NCBI GenBank assembly: GCA_965200965.1 | Contig: OZ241744.1 | Location: 2,144,001-2,208,000 of the forward strand | DNA length: 64,000 nt | Reading direction: 5' to 3' | Source: an uncultured Candidatus Binatia bacterium | Lineage (GTDB): Bacteria > Desulfobacterota > Binatia > Bin18 | Shown: in pieces, positions 27,478-42,268 of the stretch | Position numbering within the stretch: the first letter of the stretch is position 1 | How the letters are laid out: each line of letters opens with the position of its first letter | The notes under the pieces: model-generated | The model's input: the letters and a program-made list of their open reading frames with translations, nothing else | Told to the model about the DNA's origin: nothing | Databases searched by the model: none | Program-made: the position numbers and the translations under genes

Positions 27478-29877
27478 CTAATACAACACCCGCCGCTCTC
27501 TCAACTGAGCGATGCGCTCATCAGCATAGCCCAGGACATCCCGCATGACCTGCTCGGTATGCTGGCCGAGCAGCGGTGCCGGGGCCTGCACCCCGTTTGG
27601 CGATTCGGTCAGCAACCAGGGAATGCCGGTATGCTTGCGGACGCCGACCTCGGCGTGCGGCAGCTCAACAAAGAAACCCCGCTGCTTGAGATGCGGGTCG
27701 TCGGCCAGGTCTTTGCTGTTCATGGACGGAAAGGCGGCCACTCCCGCTGCCTGCAAGGTCTGTGTCAGCTGCCACTTGTCGCGCTTTTCGGTCCAGGCGG
27801 TGACGATGTTTTCCAGCGCGTCCTCGTTGGCCTTGCGGTCTTGAACGGTGCGGAAACGGGCGTCTGTGCCCAGCCCGGCCTGATCCATAGCCCGGCACAA
27901 CGCCCTCCACTCGGCGTCGTTGCCGCAGGCAATTGACACCCATTCGTCCTCGCCGGCGCACCGAAAACAGGTATGAGGGGCCATCAGCGGGTCGAGGTTC
28001 CCACGGCGGGCAGGTTCAAGGCCGTTCATGGCGTAGTCCATCCAGCCCTCGGGCACCAGCGCAGCCACCGACTCCCACAGGGAAACGTCAATGTACTGGC
28101 CTTTGCCGGTCCGTTTTCGGGCGGCCAGAGAAGCGGTCACGGCCACCGCGGCATGGATGCCGCTGTTGGGGTCGCCGTAGGAAATGCCGACCTCCTGGGG
28201 CGGACCGCCGGCATAGCCGGTCATGGCCGACAGCCCGGTCAGCGGCGCAATGGCCGGGCCGTAGCCCATATAGTTCTTGAGCGGGCCGCTATGCCCATAG
28301 CCGGAAATCGAGGCCATGATGATGTCGGGTTTGATCTTCACCAGGTCGTCATAGCCCAGGCCGAGGCGCTCCATCACCCCGGTCGCAAAATTATCGACCA
28401 CCACATCACTGTTTTGAATCAACTCCTTGACCACGGCCAGGCCCTCGGGGGTGGAGAAGTTGATCAGCACACTCTTTTTGCCCAGGCTCCACTGGTTGAA
28501 CAGCCCTGAGCGGTTCACCCCTGCTTCCATGCCCGTGGGATAGAGCGGCAGGCGACGGGTGACATCAATGCGGGTGTTGGACTCGATCTTGATGACCTCG
28601 GCTCCCAGGTGGCTGAGATACATAGTCCCGTAGGGTCCGGCCCATACCCAGGTGAAGTCGGCCACGCGAACGCCCTCAAGGGGACGGCGCATTGCGGGGC
28701 TGGGGGCCGGGGGCCGGGGAGCGGGGGCTGGAGGCAGCGCGCGCAGGACCTCGTCGGTGTGCTCGCCCAAGAGCGGGGCTGGACGGCGGACCTGCCACCA
28801 CGGCTCGCGCAGCTGGTAGGGCGGGCCAAGCTGGGTGACGGTCCCGGCGTGTGGCTGGCTCACATCAACAAAGAAGTGTCTGGACCGCAGCTGTTCCTGT
28901 TTGCTGAGCTGTTCCATGCCGAACACCGGCGCAAAACAGATCCGCCGTGACTGGGCCTCGTGCCACAACTCTTCAACCGTCCAGTCCTTGACCCATTCGT
29001 CCAGGTACATTTTCATCACGTCCTGGTTTTTAGAACGCTGGGTGGCGTCGGCAAAAATCTCCCAGCCGGCCCACTCAGGATTGCCCATCAACTCGACAAT
29101 CCGCTCCCACTGGTCTTCTTCAACCGCCAGAATGAAAATCAGCCCGTCTTTGCACTCAAAGATGCCCCACGGGTACAGCAGCCGTTTTCCTAAACGCGAG
29201 GCGATCCGGTCGCTGTACGAGTAGTAGACAAAGTTCTGCTCCAGAAAGGCGGCGATGAAGGCCTGGGTGGACAGGTCGATATGCTCCCCACAGCCGGTGT
29301 CCAAGGCCCGCTGATAGGCCGCCAGGGCCGCCATAGCGCCGGACACGCCGCCCTGGAAGTCGCACTGGTGGCCGGCGACTTTCAAGGGCGGGAGGTCTGG
29401 AAAGTCCGACGCGCCGGGACTCAGCCAGCCCCAGCCGCCGGCGTGGGACACATTCAGCTCATAGGCCCTGTAGTCTTTGTACGGCCCGCTCAGACCAAAA
29501 GGGGTGATCGAACACATGACCAGCCGGGGGTTGAGCTGCCGGAAGGCACCATAGTCAATGCCCCGCTCGGCCATCTGGGCGGCCGGGTAGTTGTGGACCA
29601 CGATATCGGCCCAGGCGACGAGCTGGGCCAGCCGGTCCTGGTGGCGGGTCAGATCAAGCGTGATGCCCCGCTTATTGGTATTCAGGGCCAGGAACAGGCC
29701 GCTCTTTTCCGGGTCGGCCAGCCCGCGGGGGAAAGGCCCACGCTGCCGGGCCGGGTCTCCGCCCGGTTCTTCGACCTTGACCACATCGGCCCCGAGGTCG
29801 GCCATGATTTTGCCGGCGTATGCGGCCGAGACCAGTTCTCCCAATTCTACCACCTTGACACCTTCGAGTCCTTGCAT
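27478..29877 (-). CDS. Tandem (two-domain) CaiB/BaiF family III CoA-transferase
   Basis: Two repeats of LEGV.V...LGA.V.K.E...NxxK, and APLLGEHT/APLLGQHT. Confidence 0.92.
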   Translation of the reverse strand: MQGLEGVKVVELGELVSAAYAGKIMADLGADVVKVEEPGGDPARQRGPFPRGLADPEKSGLFLALNTNKRGITLDLTRHQDRLAQLVAWADIVVHNYPAAQMAERGIDYGAFRQLNPRLVMCSITPFGLSGPYKDYRAYELNVSHAGGWGWLSPGASDFPDLPPLKVAGHQCDFQGGVSGAMAALAAYQRALDTGCGEHIDLSTQAFIAAFLEQNFVYYSYSDRIASRLGKRLLYPWGIFECKDGLIFILAVEEDQWERIVELMGNPEWAGWEIFADATQRSKNQDVMKMYLDEWVKDWTVEELWHEAQSRRICFAPVFGMEQLSKQEQLRSRHFFVDVSQPHAGTVTQLGPPYQLREPWWQVRRPAPLLGEHTDEVLRALPPAPAPRPPAPSPAMRRPLEGVRVADFTWVWAGPYGTMYLSHLGAEVIKIESNTRIDVTRRLPLYPTGMEAGVNRSGLFNQWSLGKKSVLINFSTPEGLAVVKELIQNSDVVVDNFATGVMERLGLGYDDLVKIKPDIIMASISGYGHSGPLKNYMGYGPAIAPLTGLSAMTGYAGGPPQEVGISYGDPNSGIHAAVAVTASLAARKRTGKGQYIDVSLWESVAALVPEGWMDYAMNGLEPARRGNLDPLMAPHTCFRCAGEDEWVSIACGNDAEWRALCRAMDQAGLGTDARFRTVQDRKANEDALENIVTAWTEKRDKWQLTQTLQAAGVAAFPSMNSKDLADDPHLKQRGFFVELPHAEVGVRKHTGIPWLLTESPNGVQAPAPLLGQHTEQVMRDVLGYADERIAQLRERRVLY

Positions 29878-29979
29878 GCCGTCCCCTCCCTCGCATCTCG
29901 CACGAATTCTCAGCCGGCCATGATAACCGGCTGCCGTGGCTTTTCAACACACCGCCGGCTTTTGTACCCTGCGGCCAGG

Positions 29980-30090
29980 GTGTTAGGCAGACACCCCGCA
30001 AGGAACGAGAACCCACCGTAAACTTAGAGTTTGAATCACGCTCAGGGGTGAATGTGTTAGGCAGACACCCCGCAAGGAACGAGAACCCAC
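29980..30090. repeat. Two exact 37-bp direct repeats separated by a 37-bp unique spacer
   Basis: GTGTTAGGCAGACACCCCGCAAGGAACGAGAACCCAC at 29980-30016 and 30054-30090; diverged homologue at about 34491-34527. Confidence 0.95.
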
Positions 30091-30138
30091 GGGGCGGAGC
30101 AAGGTTTTCCCTGATTCCCGACGAAGCCCCCCGGAGGG

Positions 30139-32232
30139 CTACTCCACGCCGGAAATCACAAAGTTCTGGAGGCTCTGCTCCCACTCCAGCACGGTCGTGG
30201 CTCCTGGAGCGGGGAAATCGGGGGCCCGGCACTCGCCGGCCAAGCCCCGGACAAAGGGATCGTCGGTCAGGTGGACGACCTCAAAGGCGTTGGTCTGACC
30301 GATCTGCTGGGCCACCTGCCCGGTGCCGGCCCAGGCTTCGGCCGTGTACGTCCCCTCGGGCAACTCGTTGAAGTTCCAGGTCAGCCCAAACCCGGTCAGG
30401 CCAGGATCGTCCTCTTCACGGATGAGGCACTGCCCGCGCGTATCGGGGCGGCTTGAGCCATAGGGCGTGTCCAGGGTGGCGACACGGCGGCCAGCCTCGT
30501 CAAAGAGGCGGACTTCGACGCTGGGGGCCGAACAGACCCAGCCCCGGATCAGGCCAATGCCGCCCCTGATCCCGTTGGGGGGGGGGTCCTCGATAACGCC
30601 CTTTGCGTTGATGGAAGGGCGGTAGGGGGCGGGGCAGGCAGGGGCCGGCGGGCAGGAGGGACAGGTCCGGGCTGGTGCGAGGCTGGCGAGTATGCGGTCA
30701 TCCCCGGGGGTGCCCTGCTGCACTCCGGCGAGGCGGGCAACAATGTGGTAGGCCCCGCTGGTCTGTGGTGTCTTCCCCTGCACCGTCACCCAATAGAACC
30801 CCGGCCGTTGGACATGGTAAAAAATCCGGCAATTGCTTCCCTCACCACTGGTATCGTTGGCCGCCAGCTGCTGGCCCCCCGGCCCATAGAGAGAGCAGAC
30901 CGTATCGACGGTGCCGAGCGTCTGGACTTCAAGGAGGCCGGGTGTAGCGACATCAATCCGGTAGTTCTGCACCTGCGGCGGGGTCCTGGCCACCAAGGTA
31001 GCAGGGGTGGCGACCCCCATTGACGGGGCAGTAATGGGGAAGGATTGCAGGCGGATGATGTATTGCCCGGTGGTTGAGGGACGCTCCCCCTCCACTTTCA
31101 AGATGGAGAGGCCTCCTGGCAGAATCACGGCTCTGAGTAAAAAATTGGAATCAACTCCACTATCAGAGTCCGTCCTGGACAGGCCACTCGAGCCGGGCAC
31201 AGGTCGCCTCAGAACGTCAAGCACACTCGGCGAGTATAAGGTCCCTTTGACATCCGTCCCCGATCCCGAGGTGATGCTCAGATGCCTCCTGGATTCTATG
31301 GTCGTGAGCAGAGGCGTACTGCCGAAATAGAGAACAGCGATGTATTGTGCCTCTCCTCTTCGCGGAATATTGCCGACGTTCCACGTCACTGGTCCGGAGG
31401 AAACAGCGGGGACCACTACAGTGCTCCCACTGAGCTTGTAGTCCACCCTTAGAATGTAATTCCCGCGCGCAGTGCTGCTCCGTGCCCCCACAGACACGGT
31501 AAAGGTGACCCCAAGCTCAATTGGCAGGACGATCCGAAAATTGTTCCCTACGCCGCTATTATCGTCCGCCGCAATCGCCCTCACGGTTGATGTCGCCGTG
31601 CCGATGGTGTCTACGCTCCCGGTCGTCTCTACGGTCAGGAGGCCGTCGCCGGAGGCGATGAAAGTGTAGGCGTCGCGCTGATTGTCGCGCATAAAGACGC
31701 CCCCGCCTGAGGTTCCGTCGGTCGTGGGAATAAGGCCATCAAAATGGCTGTAGAAGACATATGTTCCTCTGGCTCCGCCCTTCCCTGCTACCACTACAAA
31801 ATACTCTCCTGAGCTGACCGGATGTTCTATCCTGAAATGTCCAGTGTCGGGATCTTGCGTCGCAAGCTGGGTGCGTCCCTGACACAGAGACGCGGCCGAG
31901 GCAGTGAGGGTCCCTCTGGGAATGGCCGTTACTATCAGCTTCCCCGAGATAAGTGGGGGAACCCTGATCCTGAAGTAATTGACTGGGCTTGACGTCGCAA
32001 TATTACCGGGGAGCCGCCCTGAGGAGACACCGTTTCTGAGACGCCTATCAGAATCGCTCGCGAGATTTATGGTGAAATGGCGCGTATCTTCGATATCTGT
32101 GCTATCGCCGTCATCGGCTTGCATATTGAAGGCGGCAAATTGATTCACATTGCAGTCTGGAGCCTGGGCTTGGGCCGGCGGCCCCCACAGCAAGGCACAG
32201 GCTGCCAGGGCGAGGAACAGGGCGGTTTTCAC
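30139..32232 (-). CDS. Secreted/surface protein with repeated PPC-like beta-sandwich domains and a Cys-containing C-terminal domain
   Basis: Signal peptide after GTG 32232 (VKTALFLALAACALLWGPPAQA); about 4 repeats with T.G.VDT.G...DD.SG...NF.I...G.Y; Pro/Cys linker; alternative start 32292. Confidence 0.8.
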   Translation of the reverse strand: MKTALFLALAACALLWGPPAQAQAPDCNVNQFAAFNMQADDGDSTDIEDTRHFTINLASDSDRRLRNGVSSGRLPGNIATSSPVNYFRIRVPPLISGKLIVTAIPRGTLTASAASLCQGRTQLATQDPDTGHFRIEHPVSSGEYFVVVAGKGGARGTYVFYSHFDGLIPTTDGTSGGGVFMRDNQRDAYTFIASGDGLLTVETTGSVDTIGTATSTVRAIAADDNSGVGNNFRIVLPIELGVTFTVSVGARSSTARGNYILRVDYKLSGSTVVVPAVSSGPVTWNVGNIPRRGEAQYIAVLYFGSTPLLTTIESRRHLSITSGSGTDVKGTLYSPSVLDVLRRPVPGSSGLSRTDSDSGVDSNFLLRAVILPGGLSILKVEGERPSTTGQYIIRLQSFPITAPSMGVATPATLVARTPPQVQNYRIDVATPGLLEVQTLGTVDTVCSLYGPGGQQLAANDTSGEGSNCRIFYHVQRPGFYWVTVQGKTPQTSGAYHIVARLAGVQQGTPGDDRILASLAPARTCPSCPPAPACPAPYRPSINAKGVIEDPPPNGIRGGIGLIRGWVCSAPSVEVRLFDEAGRRVATLDTPYGSSRPDTRGQCLIREEDDPGLTGFGLTWNFNELPEGTYTAEAWAGTGQVAQQIGQTNAFEVVHLTDDPFVRGLAGECRAPDFPAPGATTVLEWEQSLQNFVISGVE

Positions 32233-32245
32233 AGGTGACACTTTG

Positions 32246-32261
32246 CCCCCCCCCCCCCCCC
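32246..32261. repeat. C16 homopolymer (G16 on the coding strand) at the 5' end of the surface-protein gene
   Basis: 16 consecutive C. Confidence 0.9.
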
Positions 32262-32403
32262 GCGCCAGTTTTGGCGTAGAACATATGTGCATCTTCTTCT
32301 ATCAGTATCACGATCTTGATCCGCGTTCAATCAGCCTGTTGTCTCGGCTCCTCAACACGCGCCGGCTCTTGCACCCTGCGGCAGGTGGTCGTGCGTTCCT
32401 GTG

Positions 32404-32892
32404 TCAGGCTGCCCCTTTCGGCGGCGCAGTACGTTCAATCAGCGTCCGCAAGGCGAGCATGGTTTCTGCATGGCGTTCGGCGTGGGCGAGCGTGGCTTCT
32501 GCATGGCGTTCGGCGTGGGTGCGCATGGCTTCCATGGTTTCGGCGTGGCGTTCGGCGTGGATGCGCATGGTTTCTGCATGGCGTTCGGCTTGAGTGCGCA
32601 TGGCTTCCATGGTTTCGGCGTGGCGTTCGGCGTGGGTACGCGTGGCTTCTGCATGGCGTTCGGCTTGGGTGCGCATAGCTTCCATGGTTTCGGCGTGGCG
32701 TTCGGCGTGCTGTTGTTCGCGGCGGTCGCCCATCCGTGCCATGTAGCGAATGCCGTAGCCGACGATCCCGGCCTGAATCAGCCCGACGGCCAGGGCAACC
32801 CAGGCCTGCAGATGGGCGGCCGTGACCGCGGCCTCCTGCAAGGCGAGCGTGGCCTGCTCAAAGGTGGTGAGGGTGCCAGCGGTGTCAAACAT
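32404..32892 (-). CDS. Membrane-anchored His-rich repeat protein, copy 4 (7 AERHAE units, 162 aa)
   Basis: One TM segment (WVALAVGLIQAGIVGYGI), [HQ]AERHAE repeats, LIERT terminus. Confidence 0.75.
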   Translation of the reverse strand: MFDTAGTLTTFEQATLALQEAAVTAAHLQAWVALAVGLIQAGIVGYGIRYMARMGDRREQQHAERHAETMEAMRTQAERHAEATRTHAERHAETMEAMRTQAERHAETMRIHAERHAETMEAMRTHAERHAEATLAHAERHAETMLALRTLIERTAPPKGAA

Positions 32893-32924
32893 CAGGCGTC
32901 GTCCAGGTGGTCTGCGTTCCTGTG

Positions 32925-33479
32925 TCAGGCTGCCCCTTTCGGCGGCGCGGTACGTTCAATCAGCGTCCGCAAGGCGAGCATGGCTTCTGCATGGCGTTCG
33001 GCGTGGGCGAGCGTGGCTTCTGCATGGCGTTCGGCTTGGGTGCGCATGGCTTCCATGGTTTCGGCGTGGCGTTCGGCGTGGGTACGCGTGGCTTCTGCAT
33101 GGCGTTCGGCTTGAGTGCGCATGGTTTCTGCATGGCGTTCGGCTTGAGTGCGCATGGCTTCCATGGTTTCGGCGTGGCGTTCGGCGTGGGTGCGCATGGT
33201 TTCTGCATGGCGTTCGGCGTGGGTGCGCGTGGCTTCTGCATGGCGTTCGGCTTGAGTGCGCATGGCTTCCATGGTTTCGGCGTGGCGTTCGGCGTGCTGT
33301 TGTTCGCGGCGGTCGCCCATCCGTGCCATGTAGCGAATGCCGTAGCCGACGATCCCGGCCTGAATCAGCCCGACGGCCAGGGCAACCCAGGCCTGCAGAT
33401 GGGCGGCCGTGACCGCGGCCTCCTGCAAGGCGAGCATGGCCTGCTCAAAGGTGGTGAGGGTGCCAGCGGTGTCAAACAT
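32925..33479 (-). CDS. Membrane-anchored His-rich repeat protein, copy 3 (9 units, 184 aa)
   Basis: Same architecture as the other three copies. Confidence 0.75.
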   Translation of the reverse strand: MFDTAGTLTTFEQAMLALQEAAVTAAHLQAWVALAVGLIQAGIVGYGIRYMARMGDRREQQHAERHAETMEAMRTQAERHAEATRTHAERHAETMRTHAERHAETMEAMRTQAERHAETMRTQAERHAEATRTHAERHAETMEAMRTQAERHAEATLAHAERHAEAMLALRTLIERTAPPKGAA

Positions 33480-33511
33480 CAGGCGTCGTCCAGGTGGTCT
33501 GCGTTCCTGTG

Positions 33512-33925
33512 TCAGGCTTCCCCTTTCGGCGGCGCAGTACGTTCAATCAGCGTCCGCAAGGCGAGCATGGCTTCTGCATGGCGTTCGGCGTGGGTGCGCG
33601 TGGCTTCTGCATGGCGTTCGGCTTGAGTGCGCATGGCTTCCATGGTTTCGGCATGGCGTTCGGCGTGGGCGAGCGTGGCTTCTGCATGGCGTTCGGCTTG
33701 AGTGCGCATGGCTTCCATGGTTTCGGCGTGGCGTTCGGCGTGCTGTTGTTCGCGGCGGTCGCCCATCCGTGCCATGTAGCGAATGCCGTAGCCGACGATC
33801 CCGGCCTGAATCAGCCCGACGGCCAGGGCAACCCAGGCCTGCAGATGGGCGGCCGTGACCGCGGCCTCTTGCAAGGCGAGCGTGGCCTGCTCAAAGGTGG
33901 TGAGGGTACCGGCGGTGTCAAACAT
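33512..33925 (-). CDS. Membrane-anchored His-rich repeat protein, copy 2 (5 units, 137 aa)
   Basis: Same architecture as the other three copies. Confidence 0.75.
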   Translation of the reverse strand: MFDTAGTLTTFEQATLALQEAAVTAAHLQAWVALAVGLIQAGIVGYGIRYMARMGDRREQQHAERHAETMEAMRTQAERHAEATLAHAERHAETMEAMRTQAERHAEATRTHAERHAEAMLALRTLIERTAPPKGEA

Positions 33926-33957
33926 CAGGCGTCGTCCAGGTGGTCTGCGTTCCTGTG

Positions 33958-34404
33958 TCAGGCTGCCCCTTTCGGCGGCGCAGTACGTTCAATCAGCGTC
34001 CGCAAGGCGAGCATGGTTTCTGCATGGCGTTCGGCGTGGGCGAGCGTGGCTTCTGCATGGCGTTCGGCTTGGGTGCGCATGGCTTCCATGGTTTCGGCGT
34101 GGCGTTCGGCGTGGGTGCGCATGGTTTCTGCATGGCGTTCGGCTTGAGTGCGCGTGGCTTCTGCATGGCGTTCGGCTTGGGTGCGCATGGCTTCCATGGT
34201 TTCGGCGTGGCGTTCGGCGTGCTGTTGTTCGCGGCGGTCGCCCATCCGTGCCATGTAGCGAATGCCGTAGCCGACGATCCCGGCCTGAATCAGCCCGACG
34301 GCCAGGGCAACCCAGGCCTGCAGATGGGCGGCCGTGACCGCGGCCTCTTGCAAGGCGAGCGTGGCCTGCTCAAAGGTGGTGAGGGTGCCGGCAGTGTCAA
34401 ACAT
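33958..34404 (-). CDS. Membrane-anchored His-rich repeat protein, copy 1 (6 units, 148 aa)
   Basis: Same architecture; only copy with unique upstream sequence. Confidence 0.75.
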   Translation of the reverse strand: MFDTAGTLTTFEQATLALQEAAVTAAHLQAWVALAVGLIQAGIVGYGIRYMARMGDRREQQHAERHAETMEAMRTQAERHAEATRTQAERHAETMRTHAERHAETMEAMRTQAERHAEATLAHAERHAETMLALRTLIERTAPPKGAA

Positions 34405-34473
34405 CAGGTACGTCCCGACCCGGCCTTTCTACCCTGTTTTATCTTGGTTATCCAGTAGCCAGTAGGCCGGCTC

Positions 34474-34501
34474 TTGCACCCTGCGGCCAGGGTGCTATGC
34501 A
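34474..34501 (+). promoter_or_regulatory. Putative sigma70-type promoter containing a palindrome
   Basis: TTGCAC-N16-TATGCA with extended TG; GCACCCTG-CGGC-CAGGGTGC palindrome at 34476-34495. Confidence 0.4.
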
Positions 34502-34527
34502 GGACTCTGGAAGGAACGAGAACCCAC

Positions 34528-35676
34528 ATGGCGGAGCAACGTTTTTCTCTGATTAGCGACGAAGCCCTGGCCGCCCTCCGGCAACTGATCAAGGTGCCGA
34601 TTGAGGACTCGCTGGAGCCGTGGTGCTATGAGGCCAGCCGCGACAACATCCGTCACTACGCCCACGGCATTGGCGACGATAACCCGCTGTGGTGTGACCC
34701 CGACTATGCCGCCACAACAGCCTACGGCACCCTGGCCGCTCCGCCGTCGTTTGTTTTTCCGCTGAACCGCATTCTGAGCGGCTATGTCGGCGGGCTGCCC
34801 GGCGTACACGCCATGTGGGCCGGGGCCGATATCAGCTGGCACAGCCCCATGCTGCGCGGCGACGAGTTCACCACCAAAGCCTGGCTCAAAGACCTGATTG
34901 AGCACGACACCCGTTTTGCCGGCCGGGCGATCCAGCAGGTCTACCATGTGGAGTACTACAATCAGACCGGGCGGCTGGTGGCCAGCGGCGACAGCTGGTG
35001 TTTTCGGACCGAGCGCGATACCGCCCGCGAGCGGGGCACCAAATACACCGCGCTCAAGCACCGCCAGCCTGTTCGCTATTCGCGTGACGCTCTTGCCCGA
35101 ATCTTTGCCCAGTACGCCGAGGAAAAAATCCGGGGGGCAACCCCACGCTATATTGAAGATGTGCAGGTCGGTGACAGCCTGCCGACTATGGTCAAAGGCC
35201 CGATGACAGTGACGGGCTTTATCTGCTACGCCCAGGGCTGGGGCGGGCTGTATATTCGGGCCAACCGTCTGGCCTGGAAGCAGCTCAAGAAACATCCCGG
35301 CCTGGGCATCCCGGACCGCTTCGGCATCCCTGATGTGCCCGAGCGGGTCCACTGGGACGGCGACCTGGCCGCCCTGGTCGGTACGCCCGACGCCTATGAC
35401 TACGGACCGGAGCGCACCTCGTGGATGACCCACCATCTGACCGACTGGATGGGCGACAGTGGCTTTCTGTGCCATATCCATGTGGAAATCCGGCGGCATA
35501 ATCCGGTCGGAGACACCCTGTACATCAACGGCGAGGTCAGGCGGATTTTTGCACAAGACCACGCCCACTACGTCGAGATTGCCCAGACTGCCACGAATCA
35601 GAATGACGAGTTGTCTGTCCATGCTACGGCCATCATCCGGCTCCCGTCACGGGTGCCGTCACTGCGAAAGGAGTAG
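34528..35676 (+). CDS. MaoC-like double hot-dog fold dehydratase/hydratase
   Basis: DNIRHYAHGIGDDNPLW, APPSF, second domain EDVQVGDSLP...HWD...DWMGD; ATG at 34528 after AAGGA. Confidence 0.85.
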   Translation: MAEQRFSLISDEALAALRQLIKVPIEDSLEPWCYEASRDNIRHYAHGIGDDNPLWCDPDYAATTAYGTLAAPPSFVFPLNRILSGYVGGLPGVHAMWAGADISWHSPMLRGDEFTTKAWLKDLIEHDTRFAGRAIQQVYHVEYYNQTGRLVASGDSWCFRTERDTARERGTKYTALKHRQPVRYSRDALARIFAQYAEEKIRGATPRYIEDVQVGDSLPTMVKGPMTVTGFICYAQGWGGLYIRANRLAWKQLKKHPGLGIPDRFGIPDVPERVHWDGDLAALVGTPDAYDYGPERTSWMTHHLTDWMGDSGFLCHIHVEIRRHNPVGDTLYINGEVRRIFAQDHAHYVEIAQTATNQNDELSVHATAIIRLPSRVPSLRKE

Positions 35677-40354: not shown

Positions 40355-41545
40355 CTAATCCGGCAGTCCCAACACCCGCTTGGCAATCACATTGAGTTGA
40401 ATCTCGCTCGTCCCGCCCTCAATCGTGTTGCCCCGTGAACGCAGCCAGTCGCGAGTCAGGCCGAGCTCGCGCTCATCAAAGCCCGGCCCTTCCCAGCCCA
40501 GGGCCTGCGGACCGGCAATCGACAGCAGGAGTTCCTGGCGGCGCTGGTTGAGTTCAGTCCCGTAGATTTTGAACATTGAGCTTTCCGGACCTGGCGGGCG
40601 GCCGGCCTTGGCCGCGTCACGGCTGCGCTCGGAGGTCAGCCGAAACGCCATATTGTCCATCTCGAAGCGGGCGATACGGTCGCGCAGCGCCGTGTCGGCG
40701 AGCCGTTCGTGGTCAAAATCGAGATATTTTCTGGCCCAGTCGCGCAGCCCGCGGCGTTTGCCGCCCCCGCCACTAAAGGCGGTGGCGATCATCGACCGTT
40801 CGTGGTTCAACAGCGCCTTGGCCACGCTCCAGCCCTCGTTCACCCGGCTGACCACATTTGTGGCCGGCACCCTGACATCAGTCAGAAAAGTCTCGCAGAA
40901 CGGCGAGGAGCCGCTGATGAGTTTGATCGGGCGGGTTTCCACCCCGGGAGTTTCCATGTCCATCAGGATGAAGGTGATGCCCCGGTGTTTGGGTGCGTCC
41001 GGGTCGGTCCTGACCAGCAGAAACATCCAGTCGGCAAAGTTGGCGTAGGAGGTCCAGATTTTCTGGCCGTTGATGACGTAGAAGTCGCCGTCGAGCACGG
41101 CCCGGGTCTGGAGCGAGGCCAGATCGCTGCCCGAGCCGGGCTCTGAATAGCCCTGACACCAGCGGATTTCACCCCGCACAATTTTGGTCAGGTGTTCGTG
41201 TTTTTGTTCTTCGGTCCCGTACTCCAGCAGGGTCGGGCCGATCATGGTCAGGCCAAAGCCGATGAGCGGCACCGGCAGCCTGAGCGACGCCATTTCCTCG
41301 CGCAGAATCCTGGCCTCGGCCTTTGACAGTCCGCCGCCGCCGTACTGGGTCGGCCATTCGGGCGCAGTCCAGCCCTTCTCAGCCATGCGGTCCAGCCAGA
41401 CTTTGGCGTCTGGATTCCTGTAGTGCGCCTTGCGTCCGCCCCAGTTGCCCTCCAGCTCGCTTGACGCTGTGCCGATAAGCGACGCCGGGGCGTGGTCTGT
41501 AAGCCACTGACGGGTTTCGACACGAAAGGTTTCAAGATCGGCCAT
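40355..41545 (-). CDS. Acyl-CoA dehydrogenase family protein
   Basis: WCQGYSEPGSGSDLASL, NGQKIWTS, TIEGGTSEIQLNVIAKRVLGLP; ATG at 41545 after GAGGAGG. Confidence 0.95.
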   Translation of the reverse strand: MADLETFRVETRQWLTDHAPASLIGTASSELEGNWGGRKAHYRNPDAKVWLDRMAEKGWTAPEWPTQYGGGGLSKAEARILREEMASLRLPVPLIGFGLTMIGPTLLEYGTEEQKHEHLTKIVRGEIRWCQGYSEPGSGSDLASLQTRAVLDGDFYVINGQKIWTSYANFADWMFLLVRTDPDAPKHRGITFILMDMETPGVETRPIKLISGSSPFCETFLTDVRVPATNVVSRVNEGWSVAKALLNHERSMIATAFSGGGGKRRGLRDWARKYLDFDHERLADTALRDRIARFEMDNMAFRLTSERSRDAAKAGRPPGPESSMFKIYGTELNQRRQELLLSIAGPQALGWEGPGFDERELGLTRDWLRSRGNTIEGGTSEIQLNVIAKRVLGLPD

Positions 41546-41880
41546 TGCTCCAGTCCTCCTCAAAGCTGCATGGACGCGGCAAGCCTTGGAGCGCCAGGGC
41601 GTGCCCGTTGGGCGGTTTCTTCTCTGGCCGCGTCCGGGGCTGGTCAGCCGGGGCCGTGCTGTAGACGATAGTATCCGGCTCAGCCTTTGCTCGGGCGCTT
41701 GCTGATGGTGTCGGCTCCTGACTGGTCTGGGGGAATAGTTGTTCAAGCGTCAACTTCATCATCCCTGCTATGCGCCGAGTATAGACCTGGATGTCTTCTG
41801 TTCGTCGGGGTCAGAGCGGGCTGAGGCTGAGCCGGTCAAGGTCCCTGCAAGGACCAGGGCCATGATGATTATTCTCCCGG

Positions 41881-42123
41881 TCATGGGCCACTCCTTCCTT
41901 GCTCCCCGGTGCGTTCAATCAGCGCCCGCAAGGCTTCCCCCTGCTGGCGGAGGGCTTCCATTGTTTCGGTGTGCTGCGCATCCCGTGCGCCGGCGGCTTT
42001 GCACATCAGCCATAAGTCCCCGCCAATCAAGCCCGCTTGCAGGAACCCGATCCCGACTTGGGCCGCGGCAATCAGATTACCGGTTTCGCGCAAGGCGATC
42101 ATGGCGGTTTCGTATTCGGTCAT
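41881..42123 (-). CDS. Small membrane-anchored protein related to the 32.4-34.4 kb array (single H.ETMEA unit)
   Basis: GIGFLQAGLIGG.L.LM...RDAQHTETMEALR...LRALIERT matches the array proteins; GGAGGG RBS. Confidence 0.75.
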   Translation of the reverse strand: MTEYETAMIALRETGNLIAAAQVGIGFLQAGLIGGDLWLMCKAAGARDAQHTETMEALRQQGEALRALIERTGEQGRSGP

Positions 42124-42202
42124 GCTGGCCCCTCCACACGGTCATTTTACGCCGGCCAAGCCAAGCGAAACAGGCAAACAGAGCTGAGCGGGCCGGGTCA
42201 AG

Positions 42203-42268
42203 CATTCGGGCGCGGTCCAGCCCTTCTCAGCCATGCGGTCCAGCCAGACTTTGGCGTCTGGATTCCTG
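42203..42268. repeat. 66-bp intergenic copy of 41355-41420 (inside the acyl-CoA dehydrogenase gene)
   Basis: 65/66 identical, same orientation. Confidence 0.95.

Follow-up and report, generated by a model that had tools for sequence, protein, structure and literature searches.

How do accessory genes come to be stacked at one chromosomal site, with pieces of a single promoter repeated between them, when no recombinase is encoded nearby? This question is raised by a 64,000-nucleotide stretch of DNA (hereafter the window; positions 2,144,001 to 2,208,000 of contig OZ241744.1, assembly GCA_965200965.1) from an uncultured Candidatus Binatia bacterium. Here, a CoA-transferase gene and a gene for a MaoC-like dehydratase are separated by a short stub, a gene for a predicted surface protein and an array of four small membrane-protein genes, with partial copies of the MaoC start region in between (Table 1). 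A sequence-only reading of this DNA had likened the locus to a cassette array assembled at a palindromic site. We judge a different history to be probable, namely that three nested insertions, each with its own duplication, split one divergent promoter, and that the newest was likely made by the Cas1-Cas2 proteins of the cell acting away from its CRISPR arrays.

In all seven congeners, the genes for the CoA-transferase and MaoC are neighbors in divergent orientation, with start codons 126-180 bp apart versus 4650 bp here. The earlier proposal that the two genes had once been adjacent is thereby supported, and the site is empty in each of these genomes; none of the seven carries another cargo at it, so that the alternative cargoes envisaged for related genomes did not materialize. 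At 14 more distant Binatia-like loci no CoA-transferase gene adjoins MaoC, and these loci are uninformative on the empty site.

The window belongs to a single-contig genome of 3.62 Mb (G000), and coordinates between 29 and 43 kb given below are window positions. Alignment and BLAST of the site against the whole genome recovered the four partial copies that had been described (E 6e-13 to 3e-4) and gave no significant fifth copy (next best match, E 0.15). Positions 29954-30016 are 85.7% identical to 34466-34527; positions 30054-30129 are 81.8% identical to 34492-34567 and do contain a decayed MaoC start with GGG for ATG; and positions 32361-32382 match 34466-34487 exactly over 22 bp, the left edge of this third copy (about 32335) lying further to the left than had been reported. 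The sequences are therefore present, but they are really two copies of one 130-bp segment, each later broken by a smaller insertion. With the later inserts removed, the left copy (29927-30129) and the right copy (32335-32382 plus 34488-34567) are identical in 105 of 130 columns (81%). An exact 37-bp pair (29980-30016 and 30054-30090) flanks a 37-bp stub in the left copy, and an exact 22-bp duplication around the four-gene array splits the right copy. The three duplications (about 130 bp, 22 bp and 37 bp) thus differ in length and in end points. Because both 130-bp copies share several bases that the congener G007 lacks, this duplication would date from this lineage; the insertion that produced it (event 1) appears to be the oldest because its copies have diverged by 19%.

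The palindrome itself is real, with an exact copy at 34476-34495 that is the only one found in a genome-wide check of G000. It lies over the spacer of a predicted sigma-70 promoter of MaoC, which was not among the predictions of a consensus promoter scan. Both promoter boxes and their spacing are kept in six of the seven congeners; the palindrome is kept in one and absent from six, G007 having 7 of 8 bp (one mismatch). A site-specific cassette system acting at this palindrome, with its integrase encoded elsewhere, would explain why the array junction sits at the palindrome center with a short shared motif, and the site is empty in relatives as such a system would have it. Yet only one of the three events breaks at the palindrome, which is unique and unconserved, cargo homologues occur elsewhere without it, and neither an attC-like site, an integron integrase nor an alternative cargo in the seven congeners was found. 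We regard a cassette system as very unlikely. The palindrome was rejected as a recombination site, being unique in the genome and not conserved, with copies of the array family elsewhere that lack the site sequence. An integron was likewise rejected: the integron integrase model TIGR02249 scored over its cut-off in none of eight genomes, and an attC core pattern had no match in 29.8-34.7 kb. Integron cassette arrays have an integrase, attC sites and the same crossover point for every cassette. The locus resembles them in its stacked, co-oriented accessory genes at one place, and differs from them in lacking an integrase and attC-like sites and in its unequal duplications of host promoter DNA with three end points. 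What stands of the earlier model is serial insertion with site duplication and no recombinase nearby (the two tyrosine recombinases of G000 lie about 0.55 Mb from the locus); its cassette-like hotspot falls with the differing lengths and ends of the duplications.

The following history would account for this arrangement. In event 1, the surface-protein gene would have entered, with duplication of about 130 bp comprising the promoter, the ribosome site and the first MaoC codons, leaving a dispensable left promoter copy. In event 2, the right copy would have received a small membrane-protein gene, which was then likely amplified to four genes; the accompanying duplication, of 22 bp, preserves the -35 box of MaoC. 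Both could have come about by break repair or recombination without an element-encoded integrase. In event 3, a 37-bp fragment would have become linked to both ends of a 37-bp stretch within the left, decayed copy, with duplication of that stretch, as Cas1-Cas2 does at a repeat. The stacking may reflect survivorship, in that each duplication would keep both promoters intact and make neutral DNA for the next hit.

Event 3 has the geometry of one CRISPR repeat plus one spacer, since the 37-bp duplication and the 37-bp stub give a period of 74, which also occurs in the resident I-C (19/127), III-B (4/85) and I-B (2/22) arrays. That an AT-rich stub lies between site copies had been noted correctly (43% GC versus 61.5% for the genome); the repeat-spacer geometry created by its 37-bp flanks had gone unnoticed. 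We compared read sets from runs labelled as sponge metagenome: X1, which is probably the source sample, and X3 (study P2), X6 (study P3) and X8, which represent other strains that differ from G000 at 0.3-0.4% of sites (X3, 31/8275; X6, 24/8275). In X1, the 37-mer occurs at double depth (67 versus 32-36), and a 97-nt contig runs across the stub and extends 30 letters to either side, one letter below the bridging threshold. The X3 and X6 contigs carry the left copy, the surface-protein gene and copy 3, but skip the 74-bp unit; the X3 contig joins position 29979 to 30054, with a 37-letter overlap that fits either side. Because X3 and X6 skip these 74 bp while X1 shows the filled form, event 3 is strain-specific. 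Both contigs continue for 18 bases into the array, up to the edge of the stretch compared, which makes it likely, if weakly so, that event 2 is common to the X1, X3 and X6 strains. One might argue that the copies are assembly artefacts, as the filled 74-bp form occurs only in X1 and the array, including its right junction, is outside the read comparison, which covers the left part. Depth and contig layout in X1, however, agree with the filled form, the left copy, the surface-protein gene and copy 3 recur independently in X3 and X6, and the divergence between the long copies is 19%. The left part is hence no artefact, and we consider this explanation hardly credible.

The genome is rich in systems from which such an activity could stem. 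G000 contains six CRISPR arrays, each beside one of six cas1 loci (cas2 was looked at beside the III-B cas1 only): I-C (period 71-75), I-B of the Myxococcus type (70-74), II (67-68), I-E (60-62), III-B (73-83) and V-C (43-44), with repeat lengths of 25, 28 and 36-38 bp. By size, an I-C, III-B or I-B module would fit event 3; the target in the window matches no resident repeat well enough to single one out. The V-C cas1 match contains an internal stop; at this locus (G000:C1:678575-684000; L371, L033) repeats of 25 bp alternate with spacers of 18-19 bp, the cas12c frame has only 817 aa, and 5 of 12 spacers match the own chromosome. In the I-C array (G000:C1:1689412-1698694), 91% of copies have a G directly after the 37-bp repeat, so that either the repeat is 38 bp long and its end varies, or there is a bias in the ends of the spacers. 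Isolated degenerate I-B, V-C and III-B repeat copies lie away from or beside arrays in G007:C1 (1391780, 1760908, 1040191, 1798098-1798641). G007 (97% completeness) gave no I-E Cas1 hit, and a further congener (G003) no Cas1 hit; three others (G001, G004 and G006) do have an I-E Cas1.

If event 3 is such an off-array integration, comparable units may exist elsewhere. We applied one filter for isolated, clean direct repeats, in which the CRISPR-size range makes up 5.8% of the size grid. In G000, 23 such repeats were recovered, 15 of them inside this range; in G007, of which 2.46 Mb (about two thirds of the genome) was read, there were 35, with 28 inside. The 2.23 Mb of control DNA (12 Binatia-like loci, 68 from other genomes and 80 metagenome loci) yielded none inside the range, for which about nine would be expected at the G000 density. 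Removal of one G000 row (114968, a coiled-coil protein repeat) left 14 units, and removal of five array remnants or tandem-context rows left 23 in G007. The copies are identical in 13 of the 14 G000 units. Apart from the unit in the window, ten of these are single-copy (empty) in congeners, three could not be placed and none is filled; two G000 repeats of non-CRISPR size are shared with G007. In the reverse direction, G000 clearly has the empty site for 12 of 30 candidates from G007; one control is present in both genomes, and the other candidates gave no clear picture. X3, X6 and X8 lack two G000 units that lie 8 kb from each other. Over both genomes, 22 of 37 units have a period divisible by three (p 0.001); for G000 by itself the figure is 8 of 14 (p 0.06). 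Several of the units in G000 sit in long reading frames that remain open; this keeping of frame suggests a survival filter. As a rough estimate, one unit may survive per about 350-500 substitutions, provided that this branch accounts for half of the difference of 0.3-0.4% between strains and that all 14 units are branch-specific, as are the three tested (3/3).

Several properties of this class point to Cas1. Stubs copy distant chromosomal DNA in 5 of 14 cases in G000, four of them exactly, compared with 12 of 490 array spacers (Fisher p 4e-5); in G007, 8 of 24 queried stubs do so, two only via the orthologous G000 stretch. Self-derived stubs would fit the idea that these spacers give rise to no guide and are thus not lost through autoimmunity. 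Donor flanks read AAG at an I-E-size unit, TTC at a period-72 unit and ATG at a 36+35 unit, and the available parts of two publications give AAG for I-E and TTC for I-C (PMC6546366) and ATG for I-B (PMC9881144) as protospacer-adjacent motifs (PAMs). Of the G000 units, 4 of 15 are of I-E size (period 60-61), versus 0 of 28 in G007, the genome without an I-E Cas1 hit (p 0.011), and the targets of these four show some resemblance to the I-E repeat (p 0.01, 0.04, 0.14 and 0.05; combined p 0.001). Stub units could also stem from repair or template switching independent of CRISPR, in which a short segment from a distant place is copied into a staggered break. Such a process would accommodate the self-derived stubs, the scant resemblance of targets of the 37-bp class to repeats and the other duplication sizes seen in 8 of 23 clean G000 units. 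Against it stand the tight clustering at the periods of resident arrays, the way in which the 60-61 class tracks I-E Cas1, the PAM-like donor flanks in three cases and the lack of units in control DNA, and we consider it unlikely.

A number of observations weigh against attributing the class, and event 3 with it, to Cas1-Cas2. A clear PAM is missing from 11 of 14 donor comparisons, and AAG and TTC are both obtained by assigning a shared boundary base to the spacer. Three of the four I-E-size units have period 60, when the I-E array has period 61 in 220 of 223 cases. The control loci all surround one metabolic gene, and the CRISPR content of the control genomes is not established. Loss of integration host factor (IHF) as a cause of poor aim was not supported: G000 has three DNABII genes, one IHF alpha-like, one beta-like and a third. 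For the stub in the window no donor was found, and hence this unit offers no PAM test; its target matches resident repeats at best in 17 of 37 positions (III-B; p about 0.05 before correction). No second copy of the stub occurs in G000 or in the G007 DNA that was read, its 24-nt core has no match in viral or metagenome contigs, and comparison with phage gave chance-level matches only (6 records, E 2-6). With no donor and a weak repeat match, the assignment of the unit in the window rests on its geometry, its empty allele and the class to which it belongs. It is likely a scar and not a working mini-array.

Table 1. Features of the locus (window positions; a dot marks a feature without strand).
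Feature	Position	Strand	Evidence
CoA-transferase family III gene, left neighbor of ancestral site	27478..29877	-	PF02515 E 4e-204; adjoins MaoC in 7/7 congeners
Decayed left copy of 130-bp segment with promoter and MaoC start (event 1); event 3 subsequently split it	29927..30129	+	130-column alignment
First 37-bp copy, event-3 target duplication	29980..30016	+	Exact match to 30054-30090; single copy in strains X3 and X6
37-bp foreign stub, likely off-target CRISPR spacer	30017..30053	.	43% GC; skipped by conspecific contigs
Second 37-bp copy, event-3 target duplication	30054..30090	+	Exact repeat; double depth in X1
717-aa predicted secreted/surface protein, event-1 cargo	30139..32292	-	Open reading frame; hydrophobic N-terminal stretch
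Left part of right 130-bp copy; 32361-32382 is first 22-bp copy of event 2	32335..32382	+	Nearer to G007 than left copy is
Four tandem genes, event-2 cargo	32383..34465	-	Genes 32404-32892, 32925-33479, 33512-33925, 33958-34404; open reading frames and repeats
Second 22-bp copy of event 2; retains -35 box before MaoC	34466..34487	+	Exact repeat
Predicted sigma-70 promoter of MaoC; palindrome 34476-34495 over spacer	34474..34501	+	-35 34474-34479, 16-bp spacer, -10 34496-34501
MaoC-like dehydratase gene, right neighbor of ancestral site	34528..35676	+	PF13452 E 5e-19
Second window cargo, gene 41881-42123, array family	41347..42268	-	74-bp host duplication 41347-41420 / 42195-42268, 94.6% identical; site shorter in G007

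The gene-sized cargoes find their parallel in a different process. Insertion with long target duplication, as set out in the available part of the report by Furuta, Abe and Kobayashi (2010; PMC2853133), involves a variable, genome-unique duplication of more than 30 bp, an insert of less than 20 kb without a mobile element, and an empty relative. Event 1 fits this description, with a genome-unique duplication of 130 bp, a 2.2-kb insert, no mobile-element gene and an empty site in 7/7 congeners; event 2 (22 bp) falls below the 30-bp cut-off. The cargoes in that part of the report are restriction-modification genes, for which breaks were proposed as the cause, whereas here they encode a surface protein and small membrane proteins without a nuclease match, Pfam and NCBIfam scans of the cargoes having revealed no restriction-modification family.

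Comparable duplications flank insertions at unrelated sequences elsewhere in G000. A comparison with G007 listed 106 insertions, 13 of them with a flanking direct repeat scoring at least 15, and missed the present locus itself owing to paralogue hits. Of 45 repeat-flanked candidates, 5 are empty in G007, 10 are shared, 13 fall into other categories and 17 were unplaced; three of the five empty ones have a cleanly inserted segment flanked by duplications of 90-200 bp, at the ends of unrelated genes, and the other two resemble tandem paralogue duplications. A second cargo in the window, at 41347-42268, is likely an eroded long target duplication; its flanking 74-bp copies correspond to an internal stretch of an acyl-CoA dehydrogenase gene. 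One could envisage a single process for all three events, in which half-site integration by Cas1 or breaks made by a Cas nuclease open the site for gene cargoes. The nesting of the three events within 130 bp and the long duplications around other lineage-specific cargoes would agree with this. Lengths of 22 and 130 bp, on the other hand, equal no resident repeat length, long duplications span about 55 to 200 bp or more, and the same pattern has been described without CRISPR in the part of PMC2853133 at hand; a single process therefore strikes us as quite unlikely.

As to the cargoes themselves, the proteins of the array are small, with one hydrophobic segment and a repeat-built tail. Three of the units differ by 1-4 positions over their last 190 nt, and the array was likely amplified in place. 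Their family has 20 tblastn hits in G000, where the other copies lack the site sequence, and 12 in G007, at other sites. The surface protein ends in a domain of a large in-genome family and otherwise gave only weak PF23623 and PPC-like leads, with atlas leads under 0.9. This domain, the last 150 residues (30139-30590), is unannotated, without a Pfam or NCBIfam match; tblastn located it about 39 times in G000 and 35 times in G007. Near the 5' end of the gene, a run of 15 C (32246-32260) differs by strain (X3, -8; X6, +2); it could shift the frame or the start and might be a phase-variation switch.

Two further observations concern these genomes at large. A 51-bp hairpin element (about -36 kcal/mol), which presumably resembles a repetitive extragenic palindromic (REP) or IS200/IS605-derived element, is inserted cleanly and without duplication at many sites absent from G007; it occurs at about 77 places in G000 (e.g., C1 81257, 90162, 2265819, 2670008 and 3576550) and at 16 in the G007 DNA read. 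The best MaoC relatives outside the genus are from Binatia genomes (77-81%). In a genome of another family (L007, G025:C39), MaoC and a P450 gene of 86% DNA identity lie beside a CoA-transferase fragment only, which suggests lateral transfer from this genus.

Both processes invoked here are already in print, and it is the natural scale of off-target integration that seems undocumented. Off-target integration by Cas1-Cas2 ("neo-CRISPR arrays"; Nivala, Shipman and Church, 2018) is described, in the parts of the literature available, for the I-E system of Escherichia coli with overproduced Cas1-Cas2 (10.1101/148544, PMC7054753, PMC11788318); evidence in two other species is presented there as circumstantial and the natural frequency as unclear (10.1101/148544). 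The units reported here are like these arrays in that DNA the size of a spacer lies between two copies, of repeat size, of an ordinary stretch of chromosome and, in the I-E-size class, in that the targets show some resemblance to the I-E repeat. In contrast to what those parts describe for E. coli, the units occur in wild strains and in at least three size classes from different Cas1 types. They number 14 in one genome and about 23 in the two thirds of a congener that were read, are strain-polymorphic and often keep the frame within long reading frames. According to PMC13769266, integration by the III-A Cas1-Cas2 of Thermotoga profunda is promiscuous when it lacks the guidance of a DNA-bending protein; this was seen in vitro only, and here three DNABII genes are present and the scars are fixed in genomes. 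We found no report of natural genome-wide off-target spacer scars in a literature of partial coverage, in which subscription journals were mostly not included.

An integrase-free "hotspot" can arise from unrelated processes plus survivorship, which calls for caution when stacked repeats are read as cassettes. Moreover, we lean toward the view that off-target integration, carried out by several CRISPR types at once, is a regular source of mutation for this genus of sponge symbionts, with about one surviving event per few hundred substitutions, which writes in-frame insertions of 20-26 residues into ordinary proteins, segregates between strains and keeps an unfiltered record of Cas1 capture. This record would include self DNA because such spacers escape autoimmune purging. 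The lineage offers dated natural alleles, filled versus empty in strains 0.3-0.4% apart, and with size classes that follow Cas1 types and donors that retain their flanks, target choice, ruler length and self-acquisition become testable for each system.

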